32,000 bases of DNA from Aliivibrio fischeri (GCF_009727955.1 NZ_WOBR01000003.1:86069-118068), one strand, 5' to 3'. Positions 3,504 to 19,538 are shown, counted from the stretch's first letter. Notes: generated by a model not told the origin, from the letters alone. Translations and numbers: made by a program.

Positions 3504-4685
3504 TTAACCTTTAATCTGCCTCATTTGAGACAAATATTGTATCCACCCTTTTGCTTCATTAGATGGTTTAAACTCATTAGCTCTTTTGGCATTAACAAGC
3601 GCTAATTCCAGTTGATTTAACTTATAGTAAGCGCGAGTTTTAGCTAACGCCACATCATCAGTTTTATTGTAATCCTTTACTTTATCTAAACTTTTTAGCC
3701 CTTGTTGATAATACCCTTCTTGAATCTGAAGCTGAGCAACTTGCCAATAATATTGGCCATCAAATTGTGCTGCTTTTTGCCAAACCGCAATCGCTTTATC
3801 CCACTCTTTTGCGGCCTGCCAGTAAGTTGCTTGTGTAATTATTATGTCTTTATCCGTTTCATAATCCGCTAATTGCGCCATCACTTGCGCCGCTTTTTCA
3901 GGAATGCCACGCTGTGCATATAACTGCGCTAATATTTTCAATTCAGATTGACTTAACACAATGCCTTGACGCTGTGCTAACACCAAGGTATCCAACGCAT
4001 TGCTTGGTTGATTCAATTGCAGTTGAATACTTGATAATTGCTGCCACCACCCTGCTTGCTCAGGTTCTAATTCAATCAGAGCAGTTAATGTTGGTATCGC
4101 TGATTTCCAATACTTACGTTGTAATTGTGCACCAAGCTTTAAAACTAATACTTGTCGTTTATCTTGTTTTTTATCAATTTTCACTACTTTTTGGTGCATA
4201 TTTAATGCAGATAGCACCTTATCCCATTGTGATATTTGATAATGTGTTTGAGCAATTCGAAACCATAAATCCCCTATTTTTTGATTTTCGGGTACGGTTT
4301 TGGTTAATTGGTAATAATGAGGTAATGCCTCTTTAAATCGTTGCTCAGTTAATAGCAGATCTGCCAGCATTCGCTGTGTTACCCACGCTTGTTCATCAAC
4401 TAATTGTTGGCTGCTGACAGCGGTTGAAAGGTATTTTACCGCCGCTTTACTGTTCCCATTTTGCCAATGAAAAACACCTAACATTCGCTGTACATAGGCT
4501 TTATCATAAGCCTGTGATGGCGTTAGTTTAGAAAGAATATCAATAGCATCCACTATTTTATCTTGTTGCTGCAATTGAATTGCGCGCTGTACTTTTGCCG
4601 CATTATATTGAGTTAGTTGTTGCGCTTGAGCAACCCCACTGAACATCAAAATAACACCAAAAAGAGGGGCGATAAATTTCATCAT
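3504..4685 (-). CDS. ttpD: Periplasmic TPR-repeat protein, last gene of the TonB2 operon (TtpD-like)
   Basis: Signal peptide MMKFIAPLFGVILMFSGVAQAQ. TPR-like repeats run throughout (e.g. AWVTQRMLADLLLTEQRFKEALPHYYQL, YWQVAQLQIQEGYYQQGLKSLDKV). Its start overlaps the tonB stop by 4 nt. Both position and architecture match the TPR gene of Vibrio TonB2 clusters. Confidence 0.7.
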   Translation of the reverse strand: MMKFIAPLFGVILMFSGVAQAQQLTQYNAAKVQRAIQLQQQDKIVDAIDILSKLTPSQAYDKAYVQRMLGVFHWQNGNSKAAVKYLSTAVSSQQLVDEQAWVTQRMLADLLLTEQRFKEALPHYYQLTKTVPENQKIGDLWFRIAQTHYQISQWDKVLSALNMHQKVVKIDKKQDKRQVLVLKLGAQLQRKYWKSAIPTLTALIELEPEQAGWWQQLSSIQLQLNQPSNALDTLVLAQRQGIVLSQSELKILAQLYAQRGIPEKAAQVMAQLADYETDKDIIITQATYWQAAKEWDKAIAVWQKAAQFDGQYYWQVAQLQIQEGYYQQGLKSLDKVKDYNKTDDVALAKTRAYYKLNQLELALVNAKRANEFKPSNEAKGWIQYLSQMRQIKG

Positions 4686-5302
4686 TTTGCTAACGTAAAC
4701 TCCAATTTCACGGTTTGTCCGATTTGAGCAATGGTTTTACCATCAATCACTTTTGGCTGATATTTCCATTTTTTCAATGCCTTAACCGCTTCTCTTTCAA
4801 ACATTCTACGAGGTTTTGCGTCCGTTACTTTTACATCTATAGGGCGTCCTTGTTCATCAATCGTAAACGACATCACAACAAAGCCCTCAGCCCCTCTTTT
4901 CATCGCTTTAGAAGGGTAACGAGGTTCAACACGATACAATGGCATCGCTTGCTGATTACCCGTAAAGTCCGAAAAATTTGGCGCACTAATGGCTAAGCCA
5001 GAAATACTTGAATCTAACTCAATCAGTGGCATTGAACTTTGGGGTGTAACCATTGACGTTTGAGTTTGAGCGGCCATTGGGGTCGCTTGTGGCGGAGGTT
5101 CCGGCGTATCTGGCTTTTCTGGCACACGGCGTTGGCGACGCTGTACATCTTGTTCTTGCTCAGCCATCACCATATCAAAACGAACCGTTTCACTGCTTTC
5201 TGGCTTATCTTGAATGCCGTTATCTACCATCCAAGCCATGAATGTGAATATGCCAAACGTCATGGATATTGCGATTGGCATAGCTAAAAATAAACGCCAC
5301 AT
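4682..5302 (-). CDS. tonB: TonB energy transducer (TonB2-type, 206 aa)
   Basis: N-terminal membrane anchor (LFLAMPIAISMTFGIFTFMAWMV), a Pro-rich spacer (PEKPDTPEPPPQATP), and a C-terminal TonB domain (YPSKAMKRGAEGFVVMSFTIDEQGRPIDVKV...AVKALKKWKYQP). It is translationally coupled to exbD and ttpD. Confidence 0.85.
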   Translation of the reverse strand: MWRLFLAMPIAISMTFGIFTFMAWMVDNGIQDKPESSETVRFDMVMAEQEQDVQRRQRRVPEKPDTPEPPPQATPMAAQTQTSMVTPQSSMPLIELDSSISGLAISAPNFSDFTGNQQAMPLYRVEPRYPSKAMKRGAEGFVVMSFTIDEQGRPIDVKVTDAKPRRMFEREAVKALKKWKYQPKVIDGKTIAQIGQTVKLEFTLAK

Positions 5303-5706
5303 TAGCCTTTCTCCGCAGCTAAAGCGATACCTTTAACACCAGCACCTTTCGCTGCATCCATCACTTTAATAACCGTACCGTTATACGCATGTTCATCCGC
5401 TTGAATAACTAATGATGCTTCTGGCTGTTCAAGTAATAAATGCTCTAAAGTTGCTTGCACTCGCTCTGCATCTACCATGCGTTTATCAATAAAAATATCA
5501 TTTGATGCAGTGATAGCCACAAATATACCCGCGTCTTTTTGGCTTGATACATTACTGGCTTGAGGACGATTAACCTCTACGCCAGATTCGCGCACAAATG
5601 AACTCGTTACAATAAAAAAGATCAACATGATAAATACGATATCTAGCATGGATGTTAGATCAATTTGTGCTTCTTCTTGATGTGAAGAACGACGGCCAAG
5701 TCTCAT
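5302..5706 (-). CDS. exbD: ExbD/TolR-family biopolymer transport protein (134 aa)
   Basis: The N-terminus carries the conserved Asp in its TM helix (IDLTSMLDIVFIMLIFFIV), followed by an ExbD-type periplasmic domain. An ATGA overlap joins it to exbB. Confidence 0.9.
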   Translation of the reverse strand: MRLGRRSSHQEEAQIDLTSMLDIVFIMLIFFIVTSSFVRESGVEVNRPQASNVSSQKDAGIFVAITASNDIFIDKRMVDAERVQATLEHLLLEQPEASLVIQADEHAYNGTVIKVMDAAKGAGVKGIALAAEKG

Positions 5707-6212
5707 GACTGACTCCTTAATGCTTTTTCTAATTGGTGTTCTTTACGACGACAAATTTTAGCGAGACGAGCATGAACAAACATCCCCGCCAAGGCTGCAA
5801 CCATTCCAGCCATAGTCGGTAATGTTGCTAATGAAATCCCTGATGCCATTAATTTAGGTTGGCTGCTTCCTTGATTTGCCATTACATCAAATACCGATAT
5901 CATTCCAGTAACCGTACCTAACAAACCTAACATAGGGCATATTGCCACTAACACCTTGATGAAATTCAAATATTGATTTAGTTGTAGATGAGCTTCACTG
6001 ATCCACCCATCTCTAATGGTTTTGGCATACCAAGACTCATGATCACTGCGTTGCTGCCATTGCTCAACCCATCGTTTTCGCTGTATTGGAAAACTAAACG
6101 ATATGAAAAATATTCGCTCGATAACCAACAACCAACACAAGGCAACTACAGCAGCCAACCACCATAAAATGGGGCCGCCTTGAGCCATAAAATGTGAAAG
6201 AAAAGCCGTCAT
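5703..6212 (-). CDS. exbB: ExbB/TolQ/MotA-family proton channel (169 aa, short ExbB2 type)
   Basis: Three TM segments and the family signature CPMLGLLGTVTGMISVF...GISLATLPTMAGMVAAL. Its start overlaps the ttpC stop by 1 nt (TAATG). Confidence 0.85.
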   Translation of the reverse strand: MTAFLSHFMAQGGPILWWLAAVVALCWLLVIERIFFISFSFPIQRKRWVEQWQQRSDHESWYAKTIRDGWISEAHLQLNQYLNFIKVLVAICPMLGLLGTVTGMISVFDVMANQGSSQPKLMASGISLATLPTMAGMVAALAGMFVHARLAKICRRKEHQLEKALRSQS

Positions 6213-7567
6213 TACGCTGCCATATCCATTGCGTTAGGTTGCACTACTTTTTCAGCTTGTTCAGCAACTAACCCTAGCCCTTGTTTTTCAAGAATAGTAC
6301 GAATACTTTCTGCTTGTGAGCTTAAAATATTATGCGTAAGTAATAGTGGCATTGCCGCAACTAAACCTAAAACCGTAGTAACAAGTGCCATCGAAATACC
6401 CCCCGCCATCACTTTTGGATCACCATTACCAAACTGCGTAATCACTTGGAATGTTTCGATCATGCCGGTAACCGTACCTAAAAGCCCTAACATTGGAGCC
6501 AAAGCAGCTAATAGTTTAAGCATAGACAACCCTTTTTCTAGCCCTTGCTGTTCATCAACAATGGTTTCTAATAAACGCAGTTCTAATGCTTCAACTGAAC
6601 GTTGTTTTTCTGCATCGTAAACGGCAAGTACACGGCCTAGTGGGTTTTGACCAAGCTCTTGTGGTTGCTTTAATTGCTTTCTAATTTGTTGGCGAATAAC
6701 AAACAATCTCACGCCATTAAATAATGAAATAATCAATCCAATCAGTAATAAACCAATAATGATTTTACCAACCACACCACCCGCTTGAAGACGCTCTTTC
6801 ATTGTTGGCGTATTAGCTAATTGCTCTAGCATGATGCCACGTGAAGGATCACTTGCCATCATGATGACGTGTTTGTTTGACATCTCAGATAAGATAGTTG
6901 TTGTAGGAATCAGTTTTGGCTGTTGAGCATAGTAAGTCGCTACTTGCTTTTTATTGTCCCATTGCAAAAAACCATCATCACCAACCAATGCCATATTACC
7001 TAAGCGATAAGCATTGATCGATTGGCGATGACCAGAGCCATTAATCATGGTTACCGTCGTTAATTCTAATTCAGAACTTGCATTAATTTGCTGAGCCATG
7101 GTTTGCCATAACCCCGTTAATTGCGTCATAGAAGGCAAAGACTCAGCTGCAACGATATCCGAAATTAACTGACGATGTTCTACATTCGTCGCTCCTGAAA
7201 CCGAGCTTTTTAACTCCGAATCCAAATCTTTTGCTGTCTGTCTTACCACACCAAACAATTCACCTAAGCTGCCTGTTTCTAAATGCAACTGCTGCTCCAA
7301 TGTTGCTAGTGTTTTTTCATTTTTGCTGAAAGTAGCACTTAATTGATCGCTTTCTTTTTGCAGCTTTTTACGCTCTGCAATCAATGCGTTTCTTTGGGCT
7401 TTTAAGCTTTGTTCTGTTTGTTTAAAACCAGACTCTCGTTGTGCATCCTGCTGTTTTTGTACATGACTTGCTTGTTTTGTCTCTTTCAACAACTCTGTGT
7501 TTGCAGTCGCTGTATTCATCGAAAGACCAAGCAGTGAAATAGCTAAAATCAGTGGCTTAATTGTCAT
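6212..7567 (-). CDS. ttpC: TtpC-like protein: ExbB/TolQ-type channel domain with a long N-terminal periplasmic coiled-coil extension (451 aa)
   Basis: Signal peptide, then a Gln/Lys-rich coiled coil (QKQQDAQRESGFKQTEQSLKAQRNALIAERKKLQKESDQL). The C-terminus has an ExbB-like core (APMLGLLGTVTGMIETF...GGISMALVTTVLGLVAAMPLL). This architecture and position are typical of Vibrio TonB2 systems. Confidence 0.8.
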   Translation of the reverse strand: MTIKPLILAISLLGLSMNTATANTELLKETKQASHVQKQQDAQRESGFKQTEQSLKAQRNALIAERKKLQKESDQLSATFSKNEKTLATLEQQLHLETGSLGELFGVVRQTAKDLDSELKSSVSGATNVEHRQLISDIVAAESLPSMTQLTGLWQTMAQQINASSELELTTVTMINGSGHRQSINAYRLGNMALVGDDGFLQWDNKKQVATYYAQQPKLIPTTTILSEMSNKHVIMMASDPSRGIMLEQLANTPTMKERLQAGGVVGKIIIGLLLIGLIISLFNGVRLFVIRQQIRKQLKQPQELGQNPLGRVLAVYDAEKQRSVEALELRLLETIVDEQQGLEKGLSMLKLLAALAPMLGLLGTVTGMIETFQVITQFGNGDPKVMAGGISMALVTTVLGLVAAMPLLLTHNILSSQAESIRTILEKQGLGLVAEQAEKVVQPNAMDMAA

Positions 7568-7568
7568 G

Positions 7569-8336
7569 TTATTTCACCTCTTTTAGTGATAAAGATACAG
7601 GTAGAGTCAATAAGCTTGGGGCAACTTGTTTATAAGCGACTGAATAGGCTTTCGCTAAATCATCATTAAACTCAGAATCCAGAGCCTCCCATTGATTGGT
7701 GTACGTATTCCAACTCCAATATTGAGAAGCATCAAGACGACGAGCGAGTAAAGATACGCGTCCTAAATGCAGCATATCTGCATCTATTTGTTCATTATTT
7801 TCAACAATGATCTGTGTTTGGTATGTACCTAGCTTTGTGCCGTAATCCATTTCGATCTGGTAGGCTTCGAGGAGTCGACGATATTTTTCAGCATCACTTA
7901 CGTCCGCTCTAGTCATCATATGTTCAAGCTTGGCAATGCGATGTAAACGCTCTTCCGTTTTAATTGGCTGATCTTGTTCAACTACTGTCGATAAACCAGA
8001 TAACATCTTATACATTAAAGGAACAACACCTTGTCTGGTCTCTTTAATGGTCTCAATTTGGTCATTTAAACTTACCATCTCTTGCTGCTGACTATTCACT
8101 AAACCTGTTAAATGATCACGATATACTGCCAAGTTTTTTACTTCTTCTTGGAGCTGCTCAATTTCGGCTTTATAAGCTAACGTCGCTTCTGCACTTTTAT
8201 CGATTTTCTTCTGACTTATCGCTGAAGAAGTATTTGATTTATTTTCAATTACTCGTGCTTGATCAAGCGCAGTTGCCTGAGCGGTTGTGATCACGGTTGC
8301 TAATGCAATACCGATACTGATTTTTAGAATATTCAT
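7569..8336 (-). CDS. ttpB: TtpB-like periplasmic coiled-coil protein (DUF3450-type), first gene of the TonB2 operon
   Basis: The track uses a TTG at 8345. The ATG at 8336 gives the signal peptide MNILKISIGIALATVITTAQA, followed by a coiled coil (EIEQLQEEVKNLAVYRDHLTGLVNSQQQEM). The stop is 1 nt from the ttpC start. Confidence 0.7.
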   Translation of the reverse strand: MNILKISIGIALATVITTAQATALDQARVIENKSNTSSAISQKKIDKSAEATLAYKAEIEQLQEEVKNLAVYRDHLTGLVNSQQQEMVSLNDQIETIKETRQGVVPLMYKMLSGLSTVVEQDQPIKTEERLHRIAKLEHMMTRADVSDAEKYRRLLEAYQIEMDYGTKLGTYQTQIIVENNEQIDADMLHLGRVSLLARRLDASQYWSWNTYTNQWEALDSEFNDDLAKAYSVAYKQVAPSLLTLPVSLSLKEVK

Positions 8337-8407
8337 ATTTATCAATTTCTTAACTGTTTATTTTTAAGAACGAGCTCTTAAAAATTTGTATTCAAATAAA
8401 CGCACTA

Positions 8408-8429
8408 AAGGGAGACCGAAGCCTCCCTT
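8408..8429 (-). terminator. Hairpin terminator after the TonB-dependent receptor gene
   Basis: AAGGGAG (8408-8414) pairs with CTCCCTT (8423-8429) around an 8-nt loop, with T-rich sequence on both sides. It lies 18 nt downstream of the receptor stop (8447). Confidence 0.55.
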
Positions 8430-8446
8430 ATTTTTATTACAATAAA

Positions 8447-10549
8447 TTAGTATTTAACTTGCAGTGTCGCCATGTAGTTTCGGCCTTCACCAATAACAAC
8501 ATTCGATGCCCCATCGGTTGCGTAACCATTCTTACCAGTTGAACCACCACCTGCTAAGTAGTCAGTATCAAACAAGTTTTCAACATTAAAACGAGCGACA
8601 AAGGTTAAATCTTGGTCATATTTGATGGTATGAGATAACCCTAAATCGAAACGTGCATAGCCATCTTTTTTAAAGGTATTCGCTGCATCACCGTAACGCT
8701 CACCAACATAAATAGCGCCTAAGTTTGCATCGGTACTATTAGTAAATGCATAGCGAGTCCATACACTTGCAGTATATTCAGGCACATCCGCAGGACGGTT
8801 ACCTTCATACTTTTCATCTTTCGCATATTCAGCATCTAGATATGTCGCTGAACCGCTCATTGATAACTGCTCAGTAATAAAGCCTTGCATCGCTAACTCG
8901 ACACCACGGTGAACACGTTCACCTGATTGTGTTTTCTCTTTCTTACCACCACCTAAATCAACATCAATCGTTGAGTTTTCTTGGGTAATATCAAATACAG
9001 CACCAGATACAAACAGCTGGTTATCCATTAATTCCCATTTAGTACCTAGCTCATACAGCTTGCCACGTAAAGGGTCCAATTTTTGACCGTCATTCACGTA
9101 TTCACTGCCTGATACTTCACCTTGCATTTCAAAGCTTTCAGAATACGTTGCATAGATAGAACCAATGTCCATCGGATGATAAATTACAGCAAACTTAGGT
9201 GATACCGCTTCTTCTGCTAAACCTTCCTCAACTTGGCGATCTAAACGAACACCAACTAATGCTTGCCATTGATCATTAAACGTAATCATATCCTGAGCAT
9301 AAAAACCCCATGTATCGTACTTAGATGTTGTATCTCTAGGGTCTTTATTTGGATTACGCTCTGGAGCGGGAGCTGGCTCGCCAACTTGGCCGACAGAACT
9401 ATTAAATGAATACTCTAAACGGTCATAACGATAACCTAACCAGTTACTACCAAATAGCATTTGATGGCTTACGCCTAACGCATCAAATTCACCGATTAAA
9501 TCAATGCTTGCTGTTTTAAATACCCAGTTATCTTTACGATCACTACCGCCTTGAACGTATTCACCCGTTGCTGGATTATAAGTTTCTTCTTTAGGGAAGC
9601 TCTCTACGTCATGACGATTAAAATCTTGATGATTAAAGCTTGCGTTAATGCGCCATACATCAGTTAAATTTGCAGTAACATCAACACCAATGTTTTCTAC
9701 ATCATTTTCGATTTTTGACCACTGAGCATCCCAAATGTATTTATCATTAACAACCGTTTTGCCATCTTTAATGTAAGCACCAGAATCCACGCTACCTTCA
9801 TCAATTGTACGGTCATAATGGAATGACACAGTGATATCATCATTGATGTCATAATCTAAGAATAAACCACCTACAAAACGCTCTGTAGAAGGCACCGTTC
9901 CATCACTGTATTGACGCCATGAGTTGTAAGTTTGCTTTGATACAATGGCACGACCACGTAATGTTTGGTCATCATTCAATGCACCACTTACATCCGCAGT
10001 TGTTCGAGAATCATTATTTGAGCCTAGATCTTGACTCACACTCACTTGAGTTTCATAGGTCGGTTTTTTAGCAACCATATTAACCAAGCCACCCGGAGCT
10101 GACTGGCCATATAACAGACCTGAAGGACCTTTTAGTATCTCAACACGCTCTAATAATTCAATTGGTTGACGATAATGAGACCAATGTTGTTTTCCATCAC
10201 GTAAGAAACCAGAGCTACTGCTTAGTGAAAAGCCGCGCAATGTAAATTGCTCACGGTTACGTGTAGTTGCACCAGCACCGATACTTGCATCATTCTTTAG
10301 AACTTCACCAAGCGTACTGGCACGTTGTTCATCAATAAGTTGCTCATCAATAACACTCACTTGTCCTGGAGTTTCTAATTGAGTTGCCTCCATTCGCATG
10401 GAGCTTGAATTTGTATCTGCCTTGTAACCATAGTCACGACCAGTAACAACCATGTGCTCATCAGTTGTTGATGCATCTGTTTCAGCGTAAGCAAAAGGCG
10501 TTGATAAAACGGCGCTAATAACAAGAGCTAACTGACTTTTAGAAAACAT
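8447..10549 (-). CDS. TonB-dependent outer-membrane (siderophore-type) receptor, 700 aa
   Basis: Signal peptide (LALVISAVLSTPFAYA), a TonB-box-like DEHMVVTG, plug motifs (VSVIDEQLI, RVEILKGPSGLLYGQSAPGGLVNMV), and a long beta-barrel ending in the aromatic residue ...ATLQVKY. A Fur-box-like site lies upstream. Confidence 0.9.
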   Translation of the reverse strand: MFSKSQLALVISAVLSTPFAYAETDASTTDEHMVVTGRDYGYKADTNSSSMRMEATQLETPGQVSVIDEQLIDEQRASTLGEVLKNDASIGAGATTRNREQFTLRGFSLSSSSGFLRDGKQHWSHYRQPIELLERVEILKGPSGLLYGQSAPGGLVNMVAKKPTYETQVSVSQDLGSNNDSRTTADVSGALNDDQTLRGRAIVSKQTYNSWRQYSDGTVPSTERFVGGLFLDYDINDDITVSFHYDRTIDEGSVDSGAYIKDGKTVVNDKYIWDAQWSKIENDVENIGVDVTANLTDVWRINASFNHQDFNRHDVESFPKEETYNPATGEYVQGGSDRKDNWVFKTASIDLIGEFDALGVSHQMLFGSNWLGYRYDRLEYSFNSSVGQVGEPAPAPERNPNKDPRDTTSKYDTWGFYAQDMITFNDQWQALVGVRLDRQVEEGLAEEAVSPKFAVIYHPMDIGSIYATYSESFEMQGEVSGSEYVNDGQKLDPLRGKLYELGTKWELMDNQLFVSGAVFDITQENSTIDVDLGGGKKEKTQSGERVHRGVELAMQGFITEQLSMSGSATYLDAEYAKDEKYEGNRPADVPEYTASVWTRYAFTNSTDANLGAIYVGERYGDAANTFKKDGYARFDLGLSHTIKYDQDLTFVARFNVENLFDTDYLAGGGSTGKNGYATDGASNVVIGEGRNYMATLQVKY

Positions 10550-14473: not shown

Positions 14474-14519
14474 TCTTATATAATTCATAGGATGTGATAA
14501 GCATTCATTTCTTATAAAA

Positions 14520-14545
14520 AAAGCGCTCTATATTTAGAGCGCTTT
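14520..14545. terminator. Bidirectional terminator between torA and the motor-like operon
   Basis: Perfect 11-bp stem, AAAGCGCTCTA (14520-14530) pairing with TAGAGCGCTTT (14535-14545), and a 4-nt loop. An A-run lies upstream and T-rich sequence downstream. Confidence 0.75.
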
Positions 14546-14577
14546 ACTTTATTTACAGCTAGCCAGCTATTGTTGTT

Positions 14578-15219
14578 TTAATTTCTTTTAATATAAATCA
14601 CAACACGTCGATTTAATTGACGCTGTTGTTCTATCGGTAACGCTTTGTCCGCTCGAGGTTGTGCATCCGCATACGCCACCGCTCTTAATTGTGATTTATC
14701 CACATTAAATTTGATCAATTGCTTAGTCACTTCTATAGCTCTTGCTCCAGAAAGCTCCCAGTTACTATCAAACTGTTTGGTATGAATAGGTAAATCATCA
14801 CTATGCCCTTCAACGATAATAGAGCGACCGTTCAAATCTACTTCTTTCATTGCTTCTGCGAATTCGGAAATAAGAGCTTTACCTTCAGGCTTTAAAGACG
14901 CAGAGCCTGAGTCGTACAAGTTTTCACTATCAAGATCAATTCGTATACCATCGGTGACAGCAGTCACTACCACAGAATCCAAATTCTTCTGCTCCACTAT
15001 CTCCTGAATATCGGCGGTTAACTCTTGCATAGGCAGATGAGCTGCAGTATCAACCACTTTTCCCCATCCATCTTTTAGCTCTTCTAACTTGCCTTCATTC
15101 ACTTGAGAGACGGCAACAATTAGAACAAAAAAAGCCAATAATAATGTGATAGCGTCACTGTATGTCATCATCCAATCATTGTCGTCTTTCAACTCAACTT
15201 TGGGTCTTGCTCTATTCAT
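14578..15219 (-). CDS. MotB/PomB-like stator subunit with an OmpA-type peptidoglycan-binding domain (213 aa)
   Basis: A single TM helix carries the conserved channel Asp (WMMTYSDAITLLLAFFVLIVA, D22; compare MotB YADFMTAMMAFFLV). The C-terminus has OmpA-like motifs (YDSGSASLKPEG, IIVEGHSDDLP, SNWELSGARA, NRRVVIYI). The start codon directly abuts the motA-like stop (TAAATG). Confidence 0.8.
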   Translation of the reverse strand: MNRARPKVELKDDNDWMMTYSDAITLLLAFFVLIVAVSQVNEGKLEELKDGWGKVVDTAAHLPMQELTADIQEIVEQKNLDSVVVTAVTDGIRIDLDSENLYDSGSASLKPEGKALISEFAEAMKEVDLNGRSIIVEGHSDDLPIHTKQFDSNWELSGARAIEVTKQLIKFNVDKSQLRAVAYADAQPRADKALPIEQQRQLNRRVVIYIKRN

Positions 15220-16002
15220 TTAAGACGCTAACCTTTTCTTAAACGGCAAATGTACATTCATTGAATCTTGTAAGTACAAATCAGGACGTTTTTCTGTCAT
15301 TAACACAAACGCATTAATTTGCATTTCACGATTATCAAAATTGGTATTTACTCGACGACTAATACGAATCGCTGCAGGTTTGAAAAACACCTGAGCCAAT
15401 AAAATCCCATAAAGTGTCGTTAATAAAGCAACAGCTAAACCATTACCTAGAGCAGCCATATCACCATTTAAATTATCAAGCATAATGATCAAACCAATCA
15501 ATGTACCTATCATTCCAAAGCCTGGTGCATAGGTACCCATTGAGTTTAAAACCTCGGCTTGAGTCATTTCTTGTTTATATTGGCTATGATTGCTTTCATC
15601 TAATAATTTTTTAAGCTCTTCACCTTTATAACCAGTACCGATAAGTTCGACACCTAAACGGATAAATGGATCATTTTTTTCATTATCATTCAATGAATTT
15701 TCTAAACCTGACATACCACTAGATCGAAAAATCTGATTCCACTCGACCGTTCTTTTTATTGATGCATGTTTAAACTTCGTCACGTTTTTCTCATCAAGCA
15801 AGTTAACAAGTAAACCTTTAAACGAAGACAAAATAAGTGGGTATGAATAACTGATTAACGCCGCAGTTAATGTTCCACCTAGTACAATAAGAAAACTCGA
15901 TAAACTCACAAATAACATGTATTTATCGGTACTCATTGTTACGGCACCAATTAACACACCAAACGCCATCAACAAGCCGGTAATAGTACTGAATGAGATC
16001 AT
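15220..16002 (-). CDS. MotA/PomA-like stator channel subunit (260 aa)
   Basis: The topology is four TM segments with a large cytoplasmic loop between TM2 and TM3. The C-terminal block GTYAPGFGMIGTLIGLIIMLDNL...GLAVALLTTLYGILLAQVFFKP closely parallels PomA/MotA (APAMGMIGTLVGLVAML...AVALLTTLYGAIL). The length is that of MotA, not ExbB. An ATGA overlap joins it to the upstream gene. Confidence 0.8.
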   Translation of the reverse strand: MISFSTITGLLMAFGVLIGAVTMSTDKYMLFVSLSSFLIVLGGTLTAALISYSYPLILSSFKGLLVNLLDEKNVTKFKHASIKRTVEWNQIFRSSGMSGLENSLNDNEKNDPFIRLGVELIGTGYKGEELKKLLDESNHSQYKQEMTQAEVLNSMGTYAPGFGMIGTLIGLIIMLDNLNGDMAALGNGLAVALLTTLYGILLAQVFFKPAAIRISRRVNTNFDNREMQINAFVLMTEKRPDLYLQDSMNVHLPFKKRLAS

Positions 16003-17735
16003 GCTACAGACTCCAATTCATTCATTGTAAATTGTTTATTTTCAATAGCTTGACGCATTAACATCACAACTTGTTGTTTTGCCGAGTTTTGCTCATCATA
16101 TGATGCATCTTTACAACGAGTCATTTCAGCTTTGATCATTTCAATCATACGTTCAGGGAACCCTGAAAGAATGACTGCGACTTGTTCATCGTCTAAATTA
16201 GTCAACGCTAATGCTAAAATTTCAGGATTCATACTGCGTAATATATTGCTTAAAATGACCGTTGACGTTCTAAGCACGTCATCAAAAATGTAGTACACCT
16301 TACGTAGATTTAAGTACGCTTCTGGTGAAGACACTTTTAGCTGATCTAACAAATCGTTTTGCTGACGTAAATTCATTCCATCAAGTAACGACATCAACAT
16401 TTGATTACCATCGGTTCTTACAGTTTCAAAATCAGGTACCGACTGAGCTTTAGCAGCAAGTGATGAGGCAATCTCACCAAATGTCGCCATTGGCATGGAA
16501 TCAAACTGAACTATCTCTATTGCTATTAATGCTTGCTCTTCAGCCGTAAACGTTGATAAGAACTTAGCTGAGCTTTCTGATGGTAATTGGCTTAAGACTA
16601 ATGCTTTAATGCGCAATGGCTCATCATCTAATACCCAACGAATTTGATTAATACTCAACTTATCTAAAAACGAAAATGGTCGACTGCGATGTTCAAATTG
16701 CTCAGAAGAAACCGCATCAACTAATAAATAATGTAAATCCGTTAGATCTCTCACCAAGCGGTCATAATCAGCAGGGTTCGTTTCTAAATACTTCAAATAC
16801 GCTGGAATATGTTCATTTAACGCAGGAAACATTGAAGTAAATAACGAACGTCCTAGTTCCTGATAACAAGAAGCGAACATAGGGATATTTTGTTCATTCA
16901 AACTTAAACGACGAAGTACCGCATCTACTTTTTGAGGTTCACTCAAACTGTACTTAACCAATTGTTGTCGACACGCTTTCAGTTCGCCTTTTTTCGTATC
17001 TAACAATTGCTCAGGCGTTGGAGGTAATGAACTCACTTCATTAACACCCACTTCTTTTGTAGGTACTTTACGATTACGTGCAAGTAAGTAACCAATAACT
17101 AATAGTAATAATAGAACCAACACCCACCAATATTGTGCGATAAATGATCCCGTTACTTCTGATACAGGAACCATATCCATCCGAATAATCTCAAGACGAT
17201 CCCCTCTCATTGGGTTGTATTCCAACTTCTCAAGTAACAGATTTCGAATAAGCAACTCTGTATCTTTATCCACACTATTATCTAATAATAATGTAGTTGA
17301 TAAAGAACGGATCATTTTCTCCGTTTTAGGTGCTTGTTCATTACCTAACACACCTTCTTGCTGCTCTACTTCCTCACTTGGCGTCGACACTTTTGCAGCA
17401 GTATTCTGATTAAAAGCAGACATACCCGCTAAGCCAGGAAGTTCTGGAGCATCATCAATAATAGCGGTTTTTACTTCTGGTTGTTGTTTAACAACTGTCG
17501 GTTTAGATGTTAAAGCATCAACCTCCTCACGAATAAACTCAGCTTGAATAGAAAGCACATGTATATTCTTACCCGCGATTCGTTCAATGTCGCTGTTAAG
17601 TCGTTGCTCTAACTCCGCAGTAAAAGACATTTGGTCCAACTGCAACGACGTTTGTGCGAATACAATTGAGGTAATAAATAAAAAGCTAATGCATACAAAA
17701 CGAATACACGATTTCATTCTTATTTTTCCAACCAT
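15999..17735 (-). CDS. Bitopic inner-membrane protein: FliF/YscJ-like periplasmic segment, one TM helix, then a full-length FliG-like cytoplasmic domain (578 aa)
   Basis: N-terminal signal or anchor (MKSCIRFVCISFLFITSIVFAQ). The periplasmic part, about aa 28-197, ends in IRSLSTTLLLDNSVDKDTELLIRNLLLEKLEYNPMRGDRLEIIRMDM, which resembles the FliF/YscJ segment preceding the last TM helix. The TM helix is YWWVLVLLLLLVIGYLLA. The roughly 359-aa cytoplasmic part has FliG-like blocks: WVLDDEPLRIKALVLSQLPSESSAKFLSTFTAEEQALIAIEI, KVYYIFDDVLRTSTVILSNILRSMNPEILALAL and FPERMIEMIKAEM. An alternative start is the ATG at 17717. Confidence 0.6.
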   Translation of the reverse strand: MVGKIRMKSCIRFVCISFLFITSIVFAQTSLQLDQMSFTAELEQRLNSDIERIAGKNIHVLSIQAEFIREEVDALTSKPTVVKQQPEVKTAIIDDAPELPGLAGMSAFNQNTAAKVSTPSEEVEQQEGVLGNEQAPKTEKMIRSLSTTLLLDNSVDKDTELLIRNLLLEKLEYNPMRGDRLEIIRMDMVPVSEVTGSFIAQYWWVLVLLLLLVIGYLLARNRKVPTKEVGVNEVSSLPPTPEQLLDTKKGELKACRQQLVKYSLSEPQKVDAVLRRLSLNEQNIPMFASCYQELGRSLFTSMFPALNEHIPAYLKYLETNPADYDRLVRDLTDLHYLLVDAVSSEQFEHRSRPFSFLDKLSINQIRWVLDDEPLRIKALVLSQLPSESSAKFLSTFTAEEQALIAIEIVQFDSMPMATFGEIASSLAAKAQSVPDFETVRTDGNQMLMSLLDGMNLRQQNDLLDQLKVSSPEAYLNLRKVYYIFDDVLRTSTVILSNILRSMNPEILALALTNLDDEQVAVILSGFPERMIEMIKAEMTRCKDASYDEQNSAKQQVVMLMRQAIENKQFTMNELESVA

Positions 17736-18262
17736 TTAATAATGTCAGAGACTTCTGTAAGTGATGGATCAAGTTCTAATGCTTTTTTCCATGACACTAT
17801 CGCCAATTCAACTTGATTCAACTTGTAGTGAACACTGCCTTTCATTGACAGAACTTTTGCAGGGTTTTCTGTTAGCACTTCGGCTTCATTTAATAAAGCA
17901 AGGGCTCCCACAAAATCACCATTAGCCGCTTTCTCTTTTGCTTCTACACGTAAAGCTAATGATTTAGGCTCATTAAATGCCGAAACTTGAGCTTCTTCTG
18001 AATCATTTAATTCAGGTAACAAAGCATCAATGTCTTCCTCAGGAATAAGATCAGTATCAATAGTCAAAATCAAATTTGGATCAGACAAGTCAATTTGAAA
18101 CGCCGAACGATATTGCTCTCCATTCAATCGGATAGATAATTGATTCTTTTCAAAAGGAATATTCTCTACTGTTTGCTGAGATGTAATATCATTAGCCAAT
18201 GCGATTGAAGTCATCATGCATTGAGTAGTAATGGCTGAAACAAATAAGATACGCTTTTTCAT
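17720..18262 (-). CDS. Small periplasmic protein with a C-terminal TPR/SEL1-like repeat region (180 aa)
   Basis: Signal peptide MKKRILFVSAITTQCMMTSIALA. The C-terminal repeats are AANGDFVGALALLNEAEVLTENPAKVLSMKGSVHYKLNQVELAIVSWKKALELDPS. It is packed tightly between the neighbouring genes. Confidence 0.7.
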   Translation of the reverse strand: MKKRILFVSAITTQCMMTSIALANDITSQQTVENIPFEKNQLSIRLNGEQYRSAFQIDLSDPNLILTIDTDLIPEEDIDALLPELNDSEEAQVSAFNEPKSLALRVEAKEKAANGDFVGALALLNEAEVLTENPAKVLSMKGSVHYKLNQVELAIVSWKKALELDPSLTEVSDIIKWLEK

Positions 18263-18271
18263 AACAGCCCC

Positions 18272-19324
18272 TTAGAAACGAAAACCAATAGTAAAATCAA
18301 CAGCTGCACCGCCAAACTTGCCAGTCACAACATCACCTTGGTGCTTACTCTTGTAAGAGTTCTTTTCAATATAAGCAACACCGATATCAAAAAAACCATT
18401 CTTCATATAGGCAAATTCAACACCTGAACGCATAGCGAAACTGTTCTTGCCTTCAACGAATTGAGAACCAGCACTGATATATACACTAGGAGCTGGCCAA
18501 GAAGGAGTTAAGGTGTATAAAACACGCCCTTCAATACCACCACCTTCAACATTGAATAAGTTATTTCTATCAGAATTTTGGAAGTAATTTGCAATAACAG
18601 CAAAATGCAAACGTTCACTAGGTAAATGACGAGTGTAATAACGAAGACTAAAATCAGTTACATTATTAAAAGCATCATGGCTTTCTCCATTAACTTTAGC
18701 ATCACCACTTAAGTCAATATAACTCATCGCAAATCCAAATTGATGTGGGTTTAATTCCTTCTTAATTTCTTCTTCCTTTTTAGTCATTAAATAACCATCA
18801 GCCCAAATCGTTTCGTTATTTTCGACCTGAACTAAAGAAAGGGTAATATTTTGAGAAGAATCACTTAGACCCATTCGCCACATTAAAAATGCATCAGATT
18901 GAATTTCTTTACCTAATAAACGCAACTCTTTATTACTTTCAAGTCCACGTTGATATTTAATGGATGTTTTTGTTAAATGAAGTCGAGTCTTATTACACTC
19001 AAGACAATCACGAACCAATAAACCTGATTCTTGCATCTTCGTGGTTAATAACGCATTGATATCATCAACTTGACTTTGAGTTACGTTATTATCAATCTTT
19101 CCTTGAAAGTAGATAGTTACAGAATTAATGTTTTTCTTCTCTGCAATATCTTTAATTGCAAACCAAGATTCATCACGTTCCAAAAAATCATAAATAGAAG
19201 AAGTTGATAATGAAAGTTCTGATGATGTCTTTATATTAGAAGACGCCACGGCCATATTACAAAAAATAACACCGCACAAAGTAATTAACAATTTTCTAAA
19301 CAAAATTTTACCTAAAATATACAC
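18272..19324 (-). CDS. Outer-membrane protein: N-terminal periplasmic alpha/beta domain plus C-terminal beta-barrel (350 aa)
   Basis: Signal peptide (LLITLCGVIFCNMAVASS). The C-terminal half has alternating beta-strand patterns and ends in a typical OMP terminus, ...AAVDFTIGFRF. The N-terminal domain has a TolB-N/CsgG/LpoB/FlgO-like pattern (NSVTIYFQGKIDNN...LLGKEIQSDAFLMWRMGL...ITLSLVQVENNETIWADGY). The track start is a GTG, so the start codon is uncertain. Confidence 0.65.
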   Translation of the reverse strand: MYILGKILFRKLLITLCGVIFCNMAVASSNIKTSSELSLSTSSIYDFLERDESWFAIKDIAEKKNINSVTIYFQGKIDNNVTQSQVDDINALLTTKMQESGLLVRDCLECNKTRLHLTKTSIKYQRGLESNKELRLLGKEIQSDAFLMWRMGLSDSSQNITLSLVQVENNETIWADGYLMTKKEEEIKKELNPHQFGFAMSYIDLSGDAKVNGESHDAFNNVTDFSLRYYTRHLPSERLHFAVIANYFQNSDRNNLFNVEGGGIEGRVLYTLTPSWPAPSVYISAGSQFVEGKNSFAMRSGVEFAYMKNGFFDIGVAYIEKNSYKSKHQGDVVTGKFGGAAVDFTIGFRF

Positions 19325-19343
19325 TAGCCAAATAATCCGGCGC

Positions 19344-19371
19344 AGTATACATTAAGTTTTAAATGCAACAA
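19344..19371 (-). promoter_or_regulatory. Candidate sigma70-type promoter of the five-gene operon
   Basis: On the minus strand: TTGTTG (19371-19366), a 16-nt spacer, then TATACT (19349-19344). It lies about 20 nt upstream of the annotated start. Identified by eye only. Confidence 0.25.
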
Positions 19372-19474
19372 CTAGCATAATCATCATGAAAACCCTCTTA
19401 CGAAAACAATAACAAAATAATATTAGATATCCGTGAAATATATTTATTTAATATATATTATTGATGGATATTAC

Positions 19475-19516
19475 AAAAAAAGGCCAATTCTGATTTTACA
19501 AAATTGACCTTTTTTA
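19475..19516 (-). terminator. Rho-independent terminator after the CpxA-like kinase gene
   Basis: On the minus strand: GGTCAATT, a 12-nt loop, AATTGGCC (one mismatch), then a run of seven T residues. It separates the two-component operon from the motor-like operon downstream. Confidence 0.5.
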
Positions 19517-19538
19517 TTAATGCTAGAGTCTGTATTTT

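Follow-up and report, generated by a model that had tools for sequence, protein, structure and literature searches.

What do the parts of a flagellar motor do in a non-flagellar context? The question is raised by a 32,000-nucleotide stretch of Aliivibrio fischeri chromosome II (GCF_009727955.1 NZ_WOBR01000003.1:86069-118068; this whole stretch is the window referred to throughout), a region equivalent to ~197-218 kb of chromosome II in strain ES114 (locus L007). Positions 14578-19324 of its minus strand hold five closely spaced open reading frames (ORFs), which are VF_A0183-VF_A0187 in V. fischeri ES114 and encode, from gene 1 to gene 5, an outer-membrane protein, a periplasmic tetratricopeptide repeat (TPR) protein, a natural fusion of FliF to FliG, and the two stator subunits MotA2 and MotB2 (Table 1). 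The ORFs are as tightly packed as the original prediction, made by a model from the sequence of the window, had described them, with junctions of +9, -16, -4 (ATGA) and 0 (TAAATG) nt. We propose, at odds of about one in two, that they form a self-contained, flagellum-independent, ion-driven rotor-stator machine that spans the cell envelope. A stand-alone envelope machine made of flagellar-motor parts was also what the original prediction had envisaged, and the domain content, the gene linkage and the lack of a match to any named system support it, with rotation a putative property read from the sequences. None of the three outcomes that the prediction had listed as refuting it was observed.

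Turning to the rotor, the gene 3 product matches an A. fischeri protein with 100% identity, and its cytoplasmic part is FliG-like, as had been predicted. The protein scored above the Pfam cut-offs for both FliG_M (66.9 bits, cut-off 25) and FliG_C (63.6 bits, cut-off 23.3), PDB FliG chains aligned to residues 352-568 (best E 9e-10 with the single sequence), and a profile of the family matched PDB FliG with E values down to 4e-40. The N-terminal 225 residues gave no Pfam match. A profile of this N-domain, built from 36 family members, matched FliF from Vibrio (8z5s, E 4.7e-7) and Salmonella (6scn, E 5.8e-7) across FliF residues ~224-496, a region comprising RBM3, the collar region and the second transmembrane (TM) helix, TM2; the motif RGD-x-L-x-V-x(3)-F, directly before the TM helix, is common to the fusion and FliF. 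An AlphaFold2 (AF2) model of the N-domain (predicted local distance difference test score, pLDDT, 82) runs from helix and strand through a disordered insertion to strand, helix, strand and TM helix, and its best 18 Foldseek matches were all to the FliF RBM3/S-ring (E 9e-6 to 3e-4). In the PDB structures so matched, the 33/34-mer S-ring of FliF is built by RBM3. The FliF/YscJ-like ring-building segment of the original prediction can thus be narrowed to FliF RBM3, and is not of a generic YscJ type. Positions 30-608 of the full-length family profile were collinear with residues 277-938 of an engineered Vibrio FliF-FliG fusion (8z4d_1, E 1e-37), and the same profile aligned to Salmonella FliF 229-552 and Salmonella FliG 12-324. 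Since the FliF and FliG matches lie in one stretch, gene 3 encodes, by sequence and structural model alike, a signal peptide, the C-terminal half of FliF and FliG in one protein, a natural FliF(RBM3, collar, TM2, tail)::FliG fusion.

The fusion departs from its flagellar counterparts at several points. FliF homology begins at about residue 229 of the Salmonella protein and at 246-277 of the Vibrio chains, with only the 27-residue signal peptide before it; the fusion lacks the FliF regions found around the export gate, namely TM1, RBM1 and RBM2. Against the NCBIfam fliG equivalog TIGR00207 it scored 58.6 bits, under the cut-off of 226.7. The FliM-binding motif EHPQ aligns with DEPL in the A. 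fischeri protein and is variable across the family, a degeneracy consistent with the lack of FliM and FliN genes both in the window and in every related locus examined. The MFxF hinge is retained as YYxF. The classical charged residues of the FliG torque helix are K264, R281, D288, D289 and R297 in E. coli. Among 142 family members, the position corresponding to R281 (R529) has Arg or Lys in 123 and that corresponding to D289 (E537) has Asp or Glu in 59. Positions 536, 537 and 539 are often acidic, and the equivalents of K264 and R297 are not conserved.

The last two genes bear out their earlier assignment to the MotA/PomA and MotB/PomB types. MotA2, with the 4 TM helices and the cytoplasmic torque-generating domain of an A subunit, scored 82.6 bits for Pfam MotA_ExbB, and its best PDB matches, aligned end to end, were to the MotA of Clostridium, that of Bacillus and PomA (E 5e-27 to 6e-21). 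The counterparts of PomA R88 and E96 are R93 and E101, and two prolines, P160 and P209, are retained; the Arg/Glu pair stands unchanged in the five Vibrionaceae sequences aligned (A. fischeri, A. finisterrensis, V. penaeicida, V. agarivorans), and locus L012 has a conservative version of it. MotA2 also shares with PomA the motifs GMIGTL and AVALLTTLYG, which we take to carry the Na+-site threonines of the PomAB structures; since these motifs are retained, Na+ coupling is a reasonable guess, and by analogy MotA2B2 probably conducts Na+. MotB2 exceeded the Pfam cut-offs for MotB_plug (51.2 bits, cut-off 24) and for OmpA, its predicted peptidoglycan-binding domain (65.3 bits, cut-off 27.2), and matched PDB MotB/PomB entries; its channel residue Asp22 is invariant in nine orthologs. 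The NCBIfam equivalog cut-offs for stators were unreached, at 143.9 versus 237 for PRK09109 (the best A-subunit model), 126 versus 341 for PomA and 156 versus 283 for MotD. We assign the product of motA2/motB2 to the flagellar, torque-generating type of stator, of the MotA5B2 class. A Tol/Exb reading of the stator was rejected: the tolQ and exbB models gave only E 3e-3 to 6e-2. The two genes bear the locus tags VF_A0186/VF_A0187 (PMC10804989), and the motA2 primer in the literature pairs with window 15956-15979 but for a single mismatch.

The remaining two products would occupy the periplasm and the outer membrane. In the gene 2 protein, the models TPR_11, TPR_1 and TPR_2 scored above their cut-offs at residues 135-168 and Sel1 was not matched, so that of the earlier TPR/SEL1-like description the TPR half stands. 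Across aligned orthologs the C-terminal TPR is invariant, and a lipobox Cys occurs in most, the A. fischeri protein not among them. The T-ring-like label once given to it holds as an analogy only, in that a TPR protein is encoded beside a stator; no sequence homology to MotX was detectable. The gene 1 product belongs to no Pfam or NCBIfam family, and its AF2 model, built on 9 sequences, is of moderate confidence (pLDDT 73.5). With Foldseek, the modelled barrel matched NspA, OmpX, OmpA, Ail and OmpW (best E 1.7e-6) and the N-terminal alpha/beta domain matched LpoB-C (E 7.7e-4) and TolB (TolB-N), in agreement with the predicted outer-membrane beta-barrel with a periplasmic N-domain. An H-ring or FlgO-like identity, also suggested at the outset, draws on this LpoB fold and on sub-threshold matches to Pfam FlgO (PF17680) in 4 of 11 orthologs (best E 2.3e-3; none for the A. 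fischeri protein). CsgG and LpoB gave weak Pfam matches in one ortholog each, and an hhalign comparison with V. agarivorans FlgO was weak (E 0.0086, probability 4.7%). Because the FlgO signal is weak, the H-ring analogy is only a lead. A CxxC motif (C-L/I-E-C, window 18995-19006) is kept in 8 of the 11 orthologs, appears as CAYSC in a ninth (L017) and is replaced by non-Cys residues in L013 and L016; it may be a disulfide or metal site. A second, divergent pair of genes for an outer-membrane-like (68 bits) and a TPR-like protein (58 bits) lies at L016:14185-15676, 2 kb downstream of the full module, which suggests that this outer pair can duplicate independently of rotor and stator.

How far the fusion family could be seen to extend depended on the search. 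Word-indexed protein searches reached close relatives only, and an exhaustive profile search revealed a wider family, with 190 cluster representatives at E <1e-30, nearly all of 550-730 aa; the layout of signal peptide, RGD, TM helix and FliG is common to more than 140 of these 190 (50%-identity clusters). Carriers are mostly uncultured bacteria, and those that could be named are Vibrionaceae, other Gammaproteobacteria, and Deltaproteobacteria, Campylobacterales and Elusimicrobia metagenome-assembled genomes (MAGs). Gene linkage was counted in 58 retrieved loci, scored with hidden Markov models of the five proteins, of which 34 had enough flank. In 31 of the 34, a span of 6 kb contains the complete set of five, and these loci represent 22 lineages (clusters at 70% identity); this is the co-conservation for which the original prediction had proposed a survey. 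Their order is MotA-MotB-OMP-TPR-fusion in L012 (OMP, outer-membrane protein) and fusion-OMP-TPR-MotA-MotB in L013 and L016; such permutation in distant lineages speaks for a functional linkage rather than inherited synteny. The neighbours, viewed over up to 10 kb of flank, are unrelated housekeeping genes (among them fumarase, PhoX, tRNA synthetases, formate dehydrogenase and dnaA) and are non-flagellar in at least 20 lineages, and no recurrent sixth gene common across lineages was found in 18 representative loci.

Some neighbours are specific to a lineage. In V. penaeicida, a REC-GGDEF diguanylate cyclase gene lies upstream of the module (L008:6917-8140), and a protein of ~1300 aa of the AsmA family is encoded downstream (L008:13442-17434), as it is in V. 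nigripulchritudo (L010:9641-13564). A PilZ gene stands upstream in a deltaproteobacterial locus (L015:8456-8797), and Wza/Wzz/Wzy polysaccharide-export genes stand downstream in a gammaproteobacterial MAG (L012:10614-16819). These neighbours hint at an envelope, biofilm or cyclic di-GMP theme, with none common across lineages.

All five genes are under purifying selection, with ratios of nonsynonymous to synonymous substitution rates (dN/dS) of 0.05-0.15 between A. fischeri and A. finisterrensis, and a pseudogene or relic reading was rejected on these values. Flagellar homologs without the rest of the apparatus might otherwise be taken for the decaying remnant of a second flagellar system, lost and now functionless, and partial sets have been reported in many genomes (PMC12199754). 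The five ORFs are, however, all intact, the set recurs across its divergent lineages with the fusion layout preserved, and catalytic and interface residues are conserved. These signs of conservation in effect refute a remnant, which we consider very improbable.

Part of the unit has been described before. Brennan et al. (2013) named motA2B2, unique among the Vibrio genomes then sequenced, and reported that insertion mutants of motA2 and motB2 have wild-type soft-agar motility, and that FlrA does not activate the two genes (PMC3948606). The canonical fliF and fliG of V. fischeri are VF_1852 and VF_1851, at another place in its genome. A study of stator evolution assigned to flagella the clade that combines a torque-generating interface with a plug and an OmpA-like domain (PMC12505986), and a survey of motility loss flagged rotor proteins in non-motile species as unexplained (PMC12199754). 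The three upstream genes go unmentioned in both papers on motA2/motB2 (PMC3948606, PMC10804989). No description of VF_A0183, VF_A0184 or VF_A0185, or of a non-flagellar FliF-FliG/MotAB unit, was found in the literature searched, which covered few subscription journals, so an earlier account is possible. Since motA2/motB2 had been named and mutated, they were not unnoticed; what appears to be new is the five-gene unit as a system, and what was already known is motA2/motB2 as genes, dispensable for swimming.

Compared with the flagellar motor core, the unit shares RBM3, the RGD-x-L motif before TM2, and FliG M and C domains with the torque helix; with the flagellar stators MotAB/PomAB it shares the Arg/Glu pair, the two prolines, the channel Asp, the plug and the OmpA-like anchor. 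It differs in joining FliF and FliG in one polypeptide and in having no export gate, ATPase, FliM/FliN, rod, LP-ring, hook or filament. The unit thus resembles a flagellar motor core in its proposed working, yet it fails to qualify as a FliG, FliF or PomAB ortholog, because its scores lie far under those of the NCBIfam equivalogs, FliF TM1 and RBM1/RBM2 are absent and EHPQR is degenerate, the partner genes are missing, and it is dispensable for motility. Engineered FliF-FliG fusions (Salmonella; Vibrio 8z4d/8z4g) have the same domain order, and the Vibrio fusion chain aligns with the family profile in a single unbroken stretch, but the natural protein starts at RBM3 after its signal peptide, is ~370 residues shorter and comes from a separate operon that has a stator of its own. 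A TPR-type protein and a FlgO/LpoB-like, outer-membrane-associated protein beside a stator recall the MotX/MotY T-ring and the FlgO/FlgP/FlgT H-ring of Vibrio and PflA/PflB of Campylobacter; MotX, PflA and PflB are themselves TPR or Sel1-like proteins. Unlike FlgO, the module's outer-membrane protein has its own barrel of 8-10 strands, which would not fit within the 211 aa of V. agarivorans FlgO.

The other 5:2 motors, namely ExbBD-TonB, TolQR-TolA, AglRQS-Glt, GldLM/PorLM and ZorAB, likewise combine an A subunit of the MotA/ExbB family with a B subunit that carries an Asp in a single TM helix, and likewise pass energy from the inner membrane toward the outer envelope. The module has no TonB/TolA/GltG-like, GldM-like or ZorC/ZorD partner, and it alone among them pairs a stator with a FliG homolog outside the flagellum. 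A Zorya reading was rejected: PADLOC gave matches to ZorB only, reflecting generic MotB homology, and the other three proteins had no PADLOC match. MotA2 compared with ZorA2 gave E 0.13 (NCBIfam) and 1.6e-3 over ~60 residues (PADLOC), and at 260 aa it does not have the long C-terminal tail of ZorA. The unit belongs to none of the Zorya, Tol, Exb, Agl and Gld systems. The view that it matches no characterised 5:2-motor system has therefore held, given the generic ZorB/MotB matches, the unreached NCBIfam equivalog cut-offs and the silence of the literature searched.

The sequences and the published mutants show the homologies, the conserved residues, the linkage of the five genes and their dispensability for swimming. 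In the mechanism that we propose from these, the fusion would oligomerise through RBM3 into an inner-membrane ring and, as each subunit carries its own FliG, a FliG ring would form without a FliM/FliN switch beneath it. MotA2B2 units would anchor to the peptidoglycan and conduct ions, probably Na+, and the flow of ions would push electrostatically on the FliG torque helix, through MotA2 R93/E101 and fusion R529/E537, and turn the ring. The periplasmic and outer-membrane part would be supplied by the TPR (lipo)protein together with its outer-membrane partner, and these two would either hold the stators in place, as MotX/MotY and PflA/PflB do, or receive the motion. More tentatively, such machines may constitute a distinct and widespread rotary class, with a minimal FliF-RBM3/FliG ring and flagellar-type stators and with no type III export or axial structure; relative to the flagellar motor, that class would stand as a sister lineage or have branched off from it in the distant past.

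Several observations weigh against the rotor-stator proposal. Without an axial component, a ring would lack an evident load, and we infer both the ring and its rotation from the genes. Of the classical charged residues of FliG, conservation is good at one position in five, the R281 equivalent; the Arg/Glu pair of MotA is substituted in L011, L013, L014, L016 and L017; and the collar-like insertion of the fusion is poorly conserved, besides being disordered in the AF2 model. No MotAB lies beside the fusion gene in three of the 34 loci (L001/L002, L015 and L056). L015 has only the fusion and TPR genes, and L001/L002 (MAG GCA_021781555.1, high G+C) has the fusion, TPR and outer-membrane genes; in these two, which show no MotA/MotB gene within the flank covered, either the stator is encoded elsewhere or a variant works stator-free. 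In V. agarivorans (L004:240-6170), the sole flagellar neighbourhood among the lineages examined, the module adjoins flgT, flgO, flgP, flgN, flgM, flgA, cheV and cheR. Finally, motA2/motB2 were down-regulated together with fliA under RscS overexpression, a biofilm model, in a 2023 transcriptome (PMC10804989), which leaves room for a flagellar link.

These last two observations favour a role as an accessory of the polar flagellum, whether as an alternative stator or rotor-associated set or as an assembly or regulatory factor that serves on surfaces, at high viscosity or in the host. Every recognisable part has a flagellar homolog, and the motility of the mutants was assayed in soft agar only. 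Opposed to this are the non-flagellar neighbours in the other lineages, the position of the genes outside the FlrA regulon and the full motility of the mutants. Moreover, a fusion with its own ring domain and TM helix, without RBM1/RBM2 and EHPQR, cannot simply replace FliF or FliG. We regard an accessory role as improbable.

That no axial load is encoded also speaks for a non-rotary transducer, similar to Tol-Pal or ExbBD-TonB, in which ion flow through MotA2B2 would drive FliF'-FliG through conformational cycles with no closed rotating ring. The periplasmic domain of the fusion would then act through the TPR protein on the outer-membrane barrel, in gating, tethering or outer-membrane homeostasis. 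The parts of the module do reach from the inner to the outer membrane, the gene 1 N-domain has a TolB-N/LpoB fold, and the genes that follow the module include the AsmA-family lipid-bridge gene of V. penaeicida and V. nigripulchritudo and the polysaccharide-export genes of L012. The periplasmic domain is, however, specifically RBM3, whose known role is ring building; the predicted stator is of the flagellar torque-generating type, with the TolQ/ExbB type at only E ~3e-3; and the FliG torque helix and hinge motif are retained. Nor does the module provide a TonB- or TolA-like extended periplasmic partner: Pfam found no TonB_C or TolA domain in the five-gene operon. A non-rotary transducer thus seems unlikely, and the rotor-stator machine is the reading that we prefer, with some of the probability assigned to none of these readings.

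The boundaries of the unit are set by terminators, as originally predicted. Both are hairpins followed by a U-tract; the upstream one (folded over 19465-19530) has a free energy (dG) of -21.3 kcal/mol and z = -6.0 versus shuffled sequence, and the downstream one (14505-14560) a dG of -18.5 kcal/mol and z = -4.3. A simple terminator scanner reported the downstream hairpin only, because the loop and G+C content of the upstream one fall outside its rules. The upstream terminator is the 5' boundary and the downstream terminator the 3' boundary, and the promoter region lies between the upstream terminator and the gene 1 start codon. The operon had been drawn as reaching 19371. An in-frame stop is present in 19325-19371, upstream of the gene 1 GTG, so gene 1 cannot extend that far. 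The TTG start, which gives the form annotated by NCBI (P0173; 52 database entries), is more likely than the GTG. A candidate sigma-28-like promoter, TAAA-N16-GCCGGATTA, was spotted by eye just 5' of gene 1 (window ~19334-19362, minus strand); this reading is weakened by the published data, which give no FlrA dependence.

Table 1. Features of the five-gene unit and its surroundings; positions are nucleotides of the window unless given as residues (aa).
Feature	Position	Strand	Description
Gene 1, outer-membrane protein	18272-19324	minus	350 aa from GTG 19324; more likely 343 aa from TTG 19303
Gene 1 domains			signal peptide; periplasmic alpha/beta domain with CxxC at aa 107-110; C-terminal small beta-barrel ending GFRF
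Gene 2, periplasmic TPR protein	17720-18262	minus	180 aa
Gene 2 domains			signal peptide; small conserved beta-rich N-domain; variable acidic linker; two C-terminal TPR repeats
Gene 3, natural FliF(C-terminal half)::FliG fusion	15999-17735	minus	578 aa; Met7 start possible
Fusion, signal peptide	aa 1-27
Fusion, FliF RBM3-like domain	aa 28-186		LPGL motif 99-102 and RGD 177-179
Fusion, disordered collar-like insertion	aa 72-137		inside RBM3-like domain
Fusion, TM helix	~aa 195-221
Fusion, FliF-tail/FliG_N-like cytoplasmic linker	aa 222-350		~130 residues
Fusion, FliG_M	aa 364-434
Fusion, FliG_C	aa 465-569		torque-helix R529 and E537
Gene 4, motA2 (VF_A0186)	15220-16002	minus	MotA/PomA-type stator A subunit, 260 aa
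Gene 5, motB2 (VF_A0187)	14578-15219	minus	MotB/PomB-type stator B subunit, 213 aa
Intrinsic terminator of upstream cpxA-like gene	19475-19516	minus	17-bp stem, then U7 tract
Bidirectional intrinsic terminator, shared with convergent torA-like gene	14520-14545	both	11-bp stem, 5 G-C pairs, T-runs on each strand
TonB-dependent siderophore receptor (TonB2-type cluster)	8447-10549	minus
TolQ/ExbB-like protein (TonB2-type cluster)	6212-7567	minus	451 aa
ExbD/TolR-like protein (TonB2-type cluster)	5302-5706	minus
TonB C-terminal-domain protein (TonB2-type cluster)	4682-5302	minus

The flanks had been named as torCA and a Cpx-like two-component system. TorC/TorA-like and CpxA/CpxR-like pairs are indeed found there, all scoring under the NCBIfam equivalog cut-offs. 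Past the torCA-like pair, ~4 kb from the module, lies a TonB2-type cluster (window 3504-10549, minus strand) to which a 169-aa protein also belongs, and the window therefore holds two distinct systems of the 5:2-motor family.

FliG and torque-generating MotAB stators are currently regarded as exclusive to flagella. The five-gene unit provides a concrete, conserved case in which a natural FliF-FliG fusion, such a stator and two envelope proteins stand together in a non-flagellar context. Members of the fusion family such as P0182, P0029 and P0064 carry the Joint Genome Institute (JGI) annotation 'flagellar motor switch protein FliG', and labels of this kind may inflate flagellar gene counts and mislead genome-based prediction of motility. 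The unit is present in the genetically tractable V. fischeri ES114, for which mutants of both stator genes are already available. Rotation of the unit, if it occurs, would represent a new use of the flagellar torque-generating mechanism and would bear on the origin of the flagellum, that is, on whether the rotor-stator and secretion modules evolved separately. Should the distinct rotary class prove true, the rotor-stator pair would be an autonomous, transferable unit, a living 'half a motor' with an envelope function of its own.

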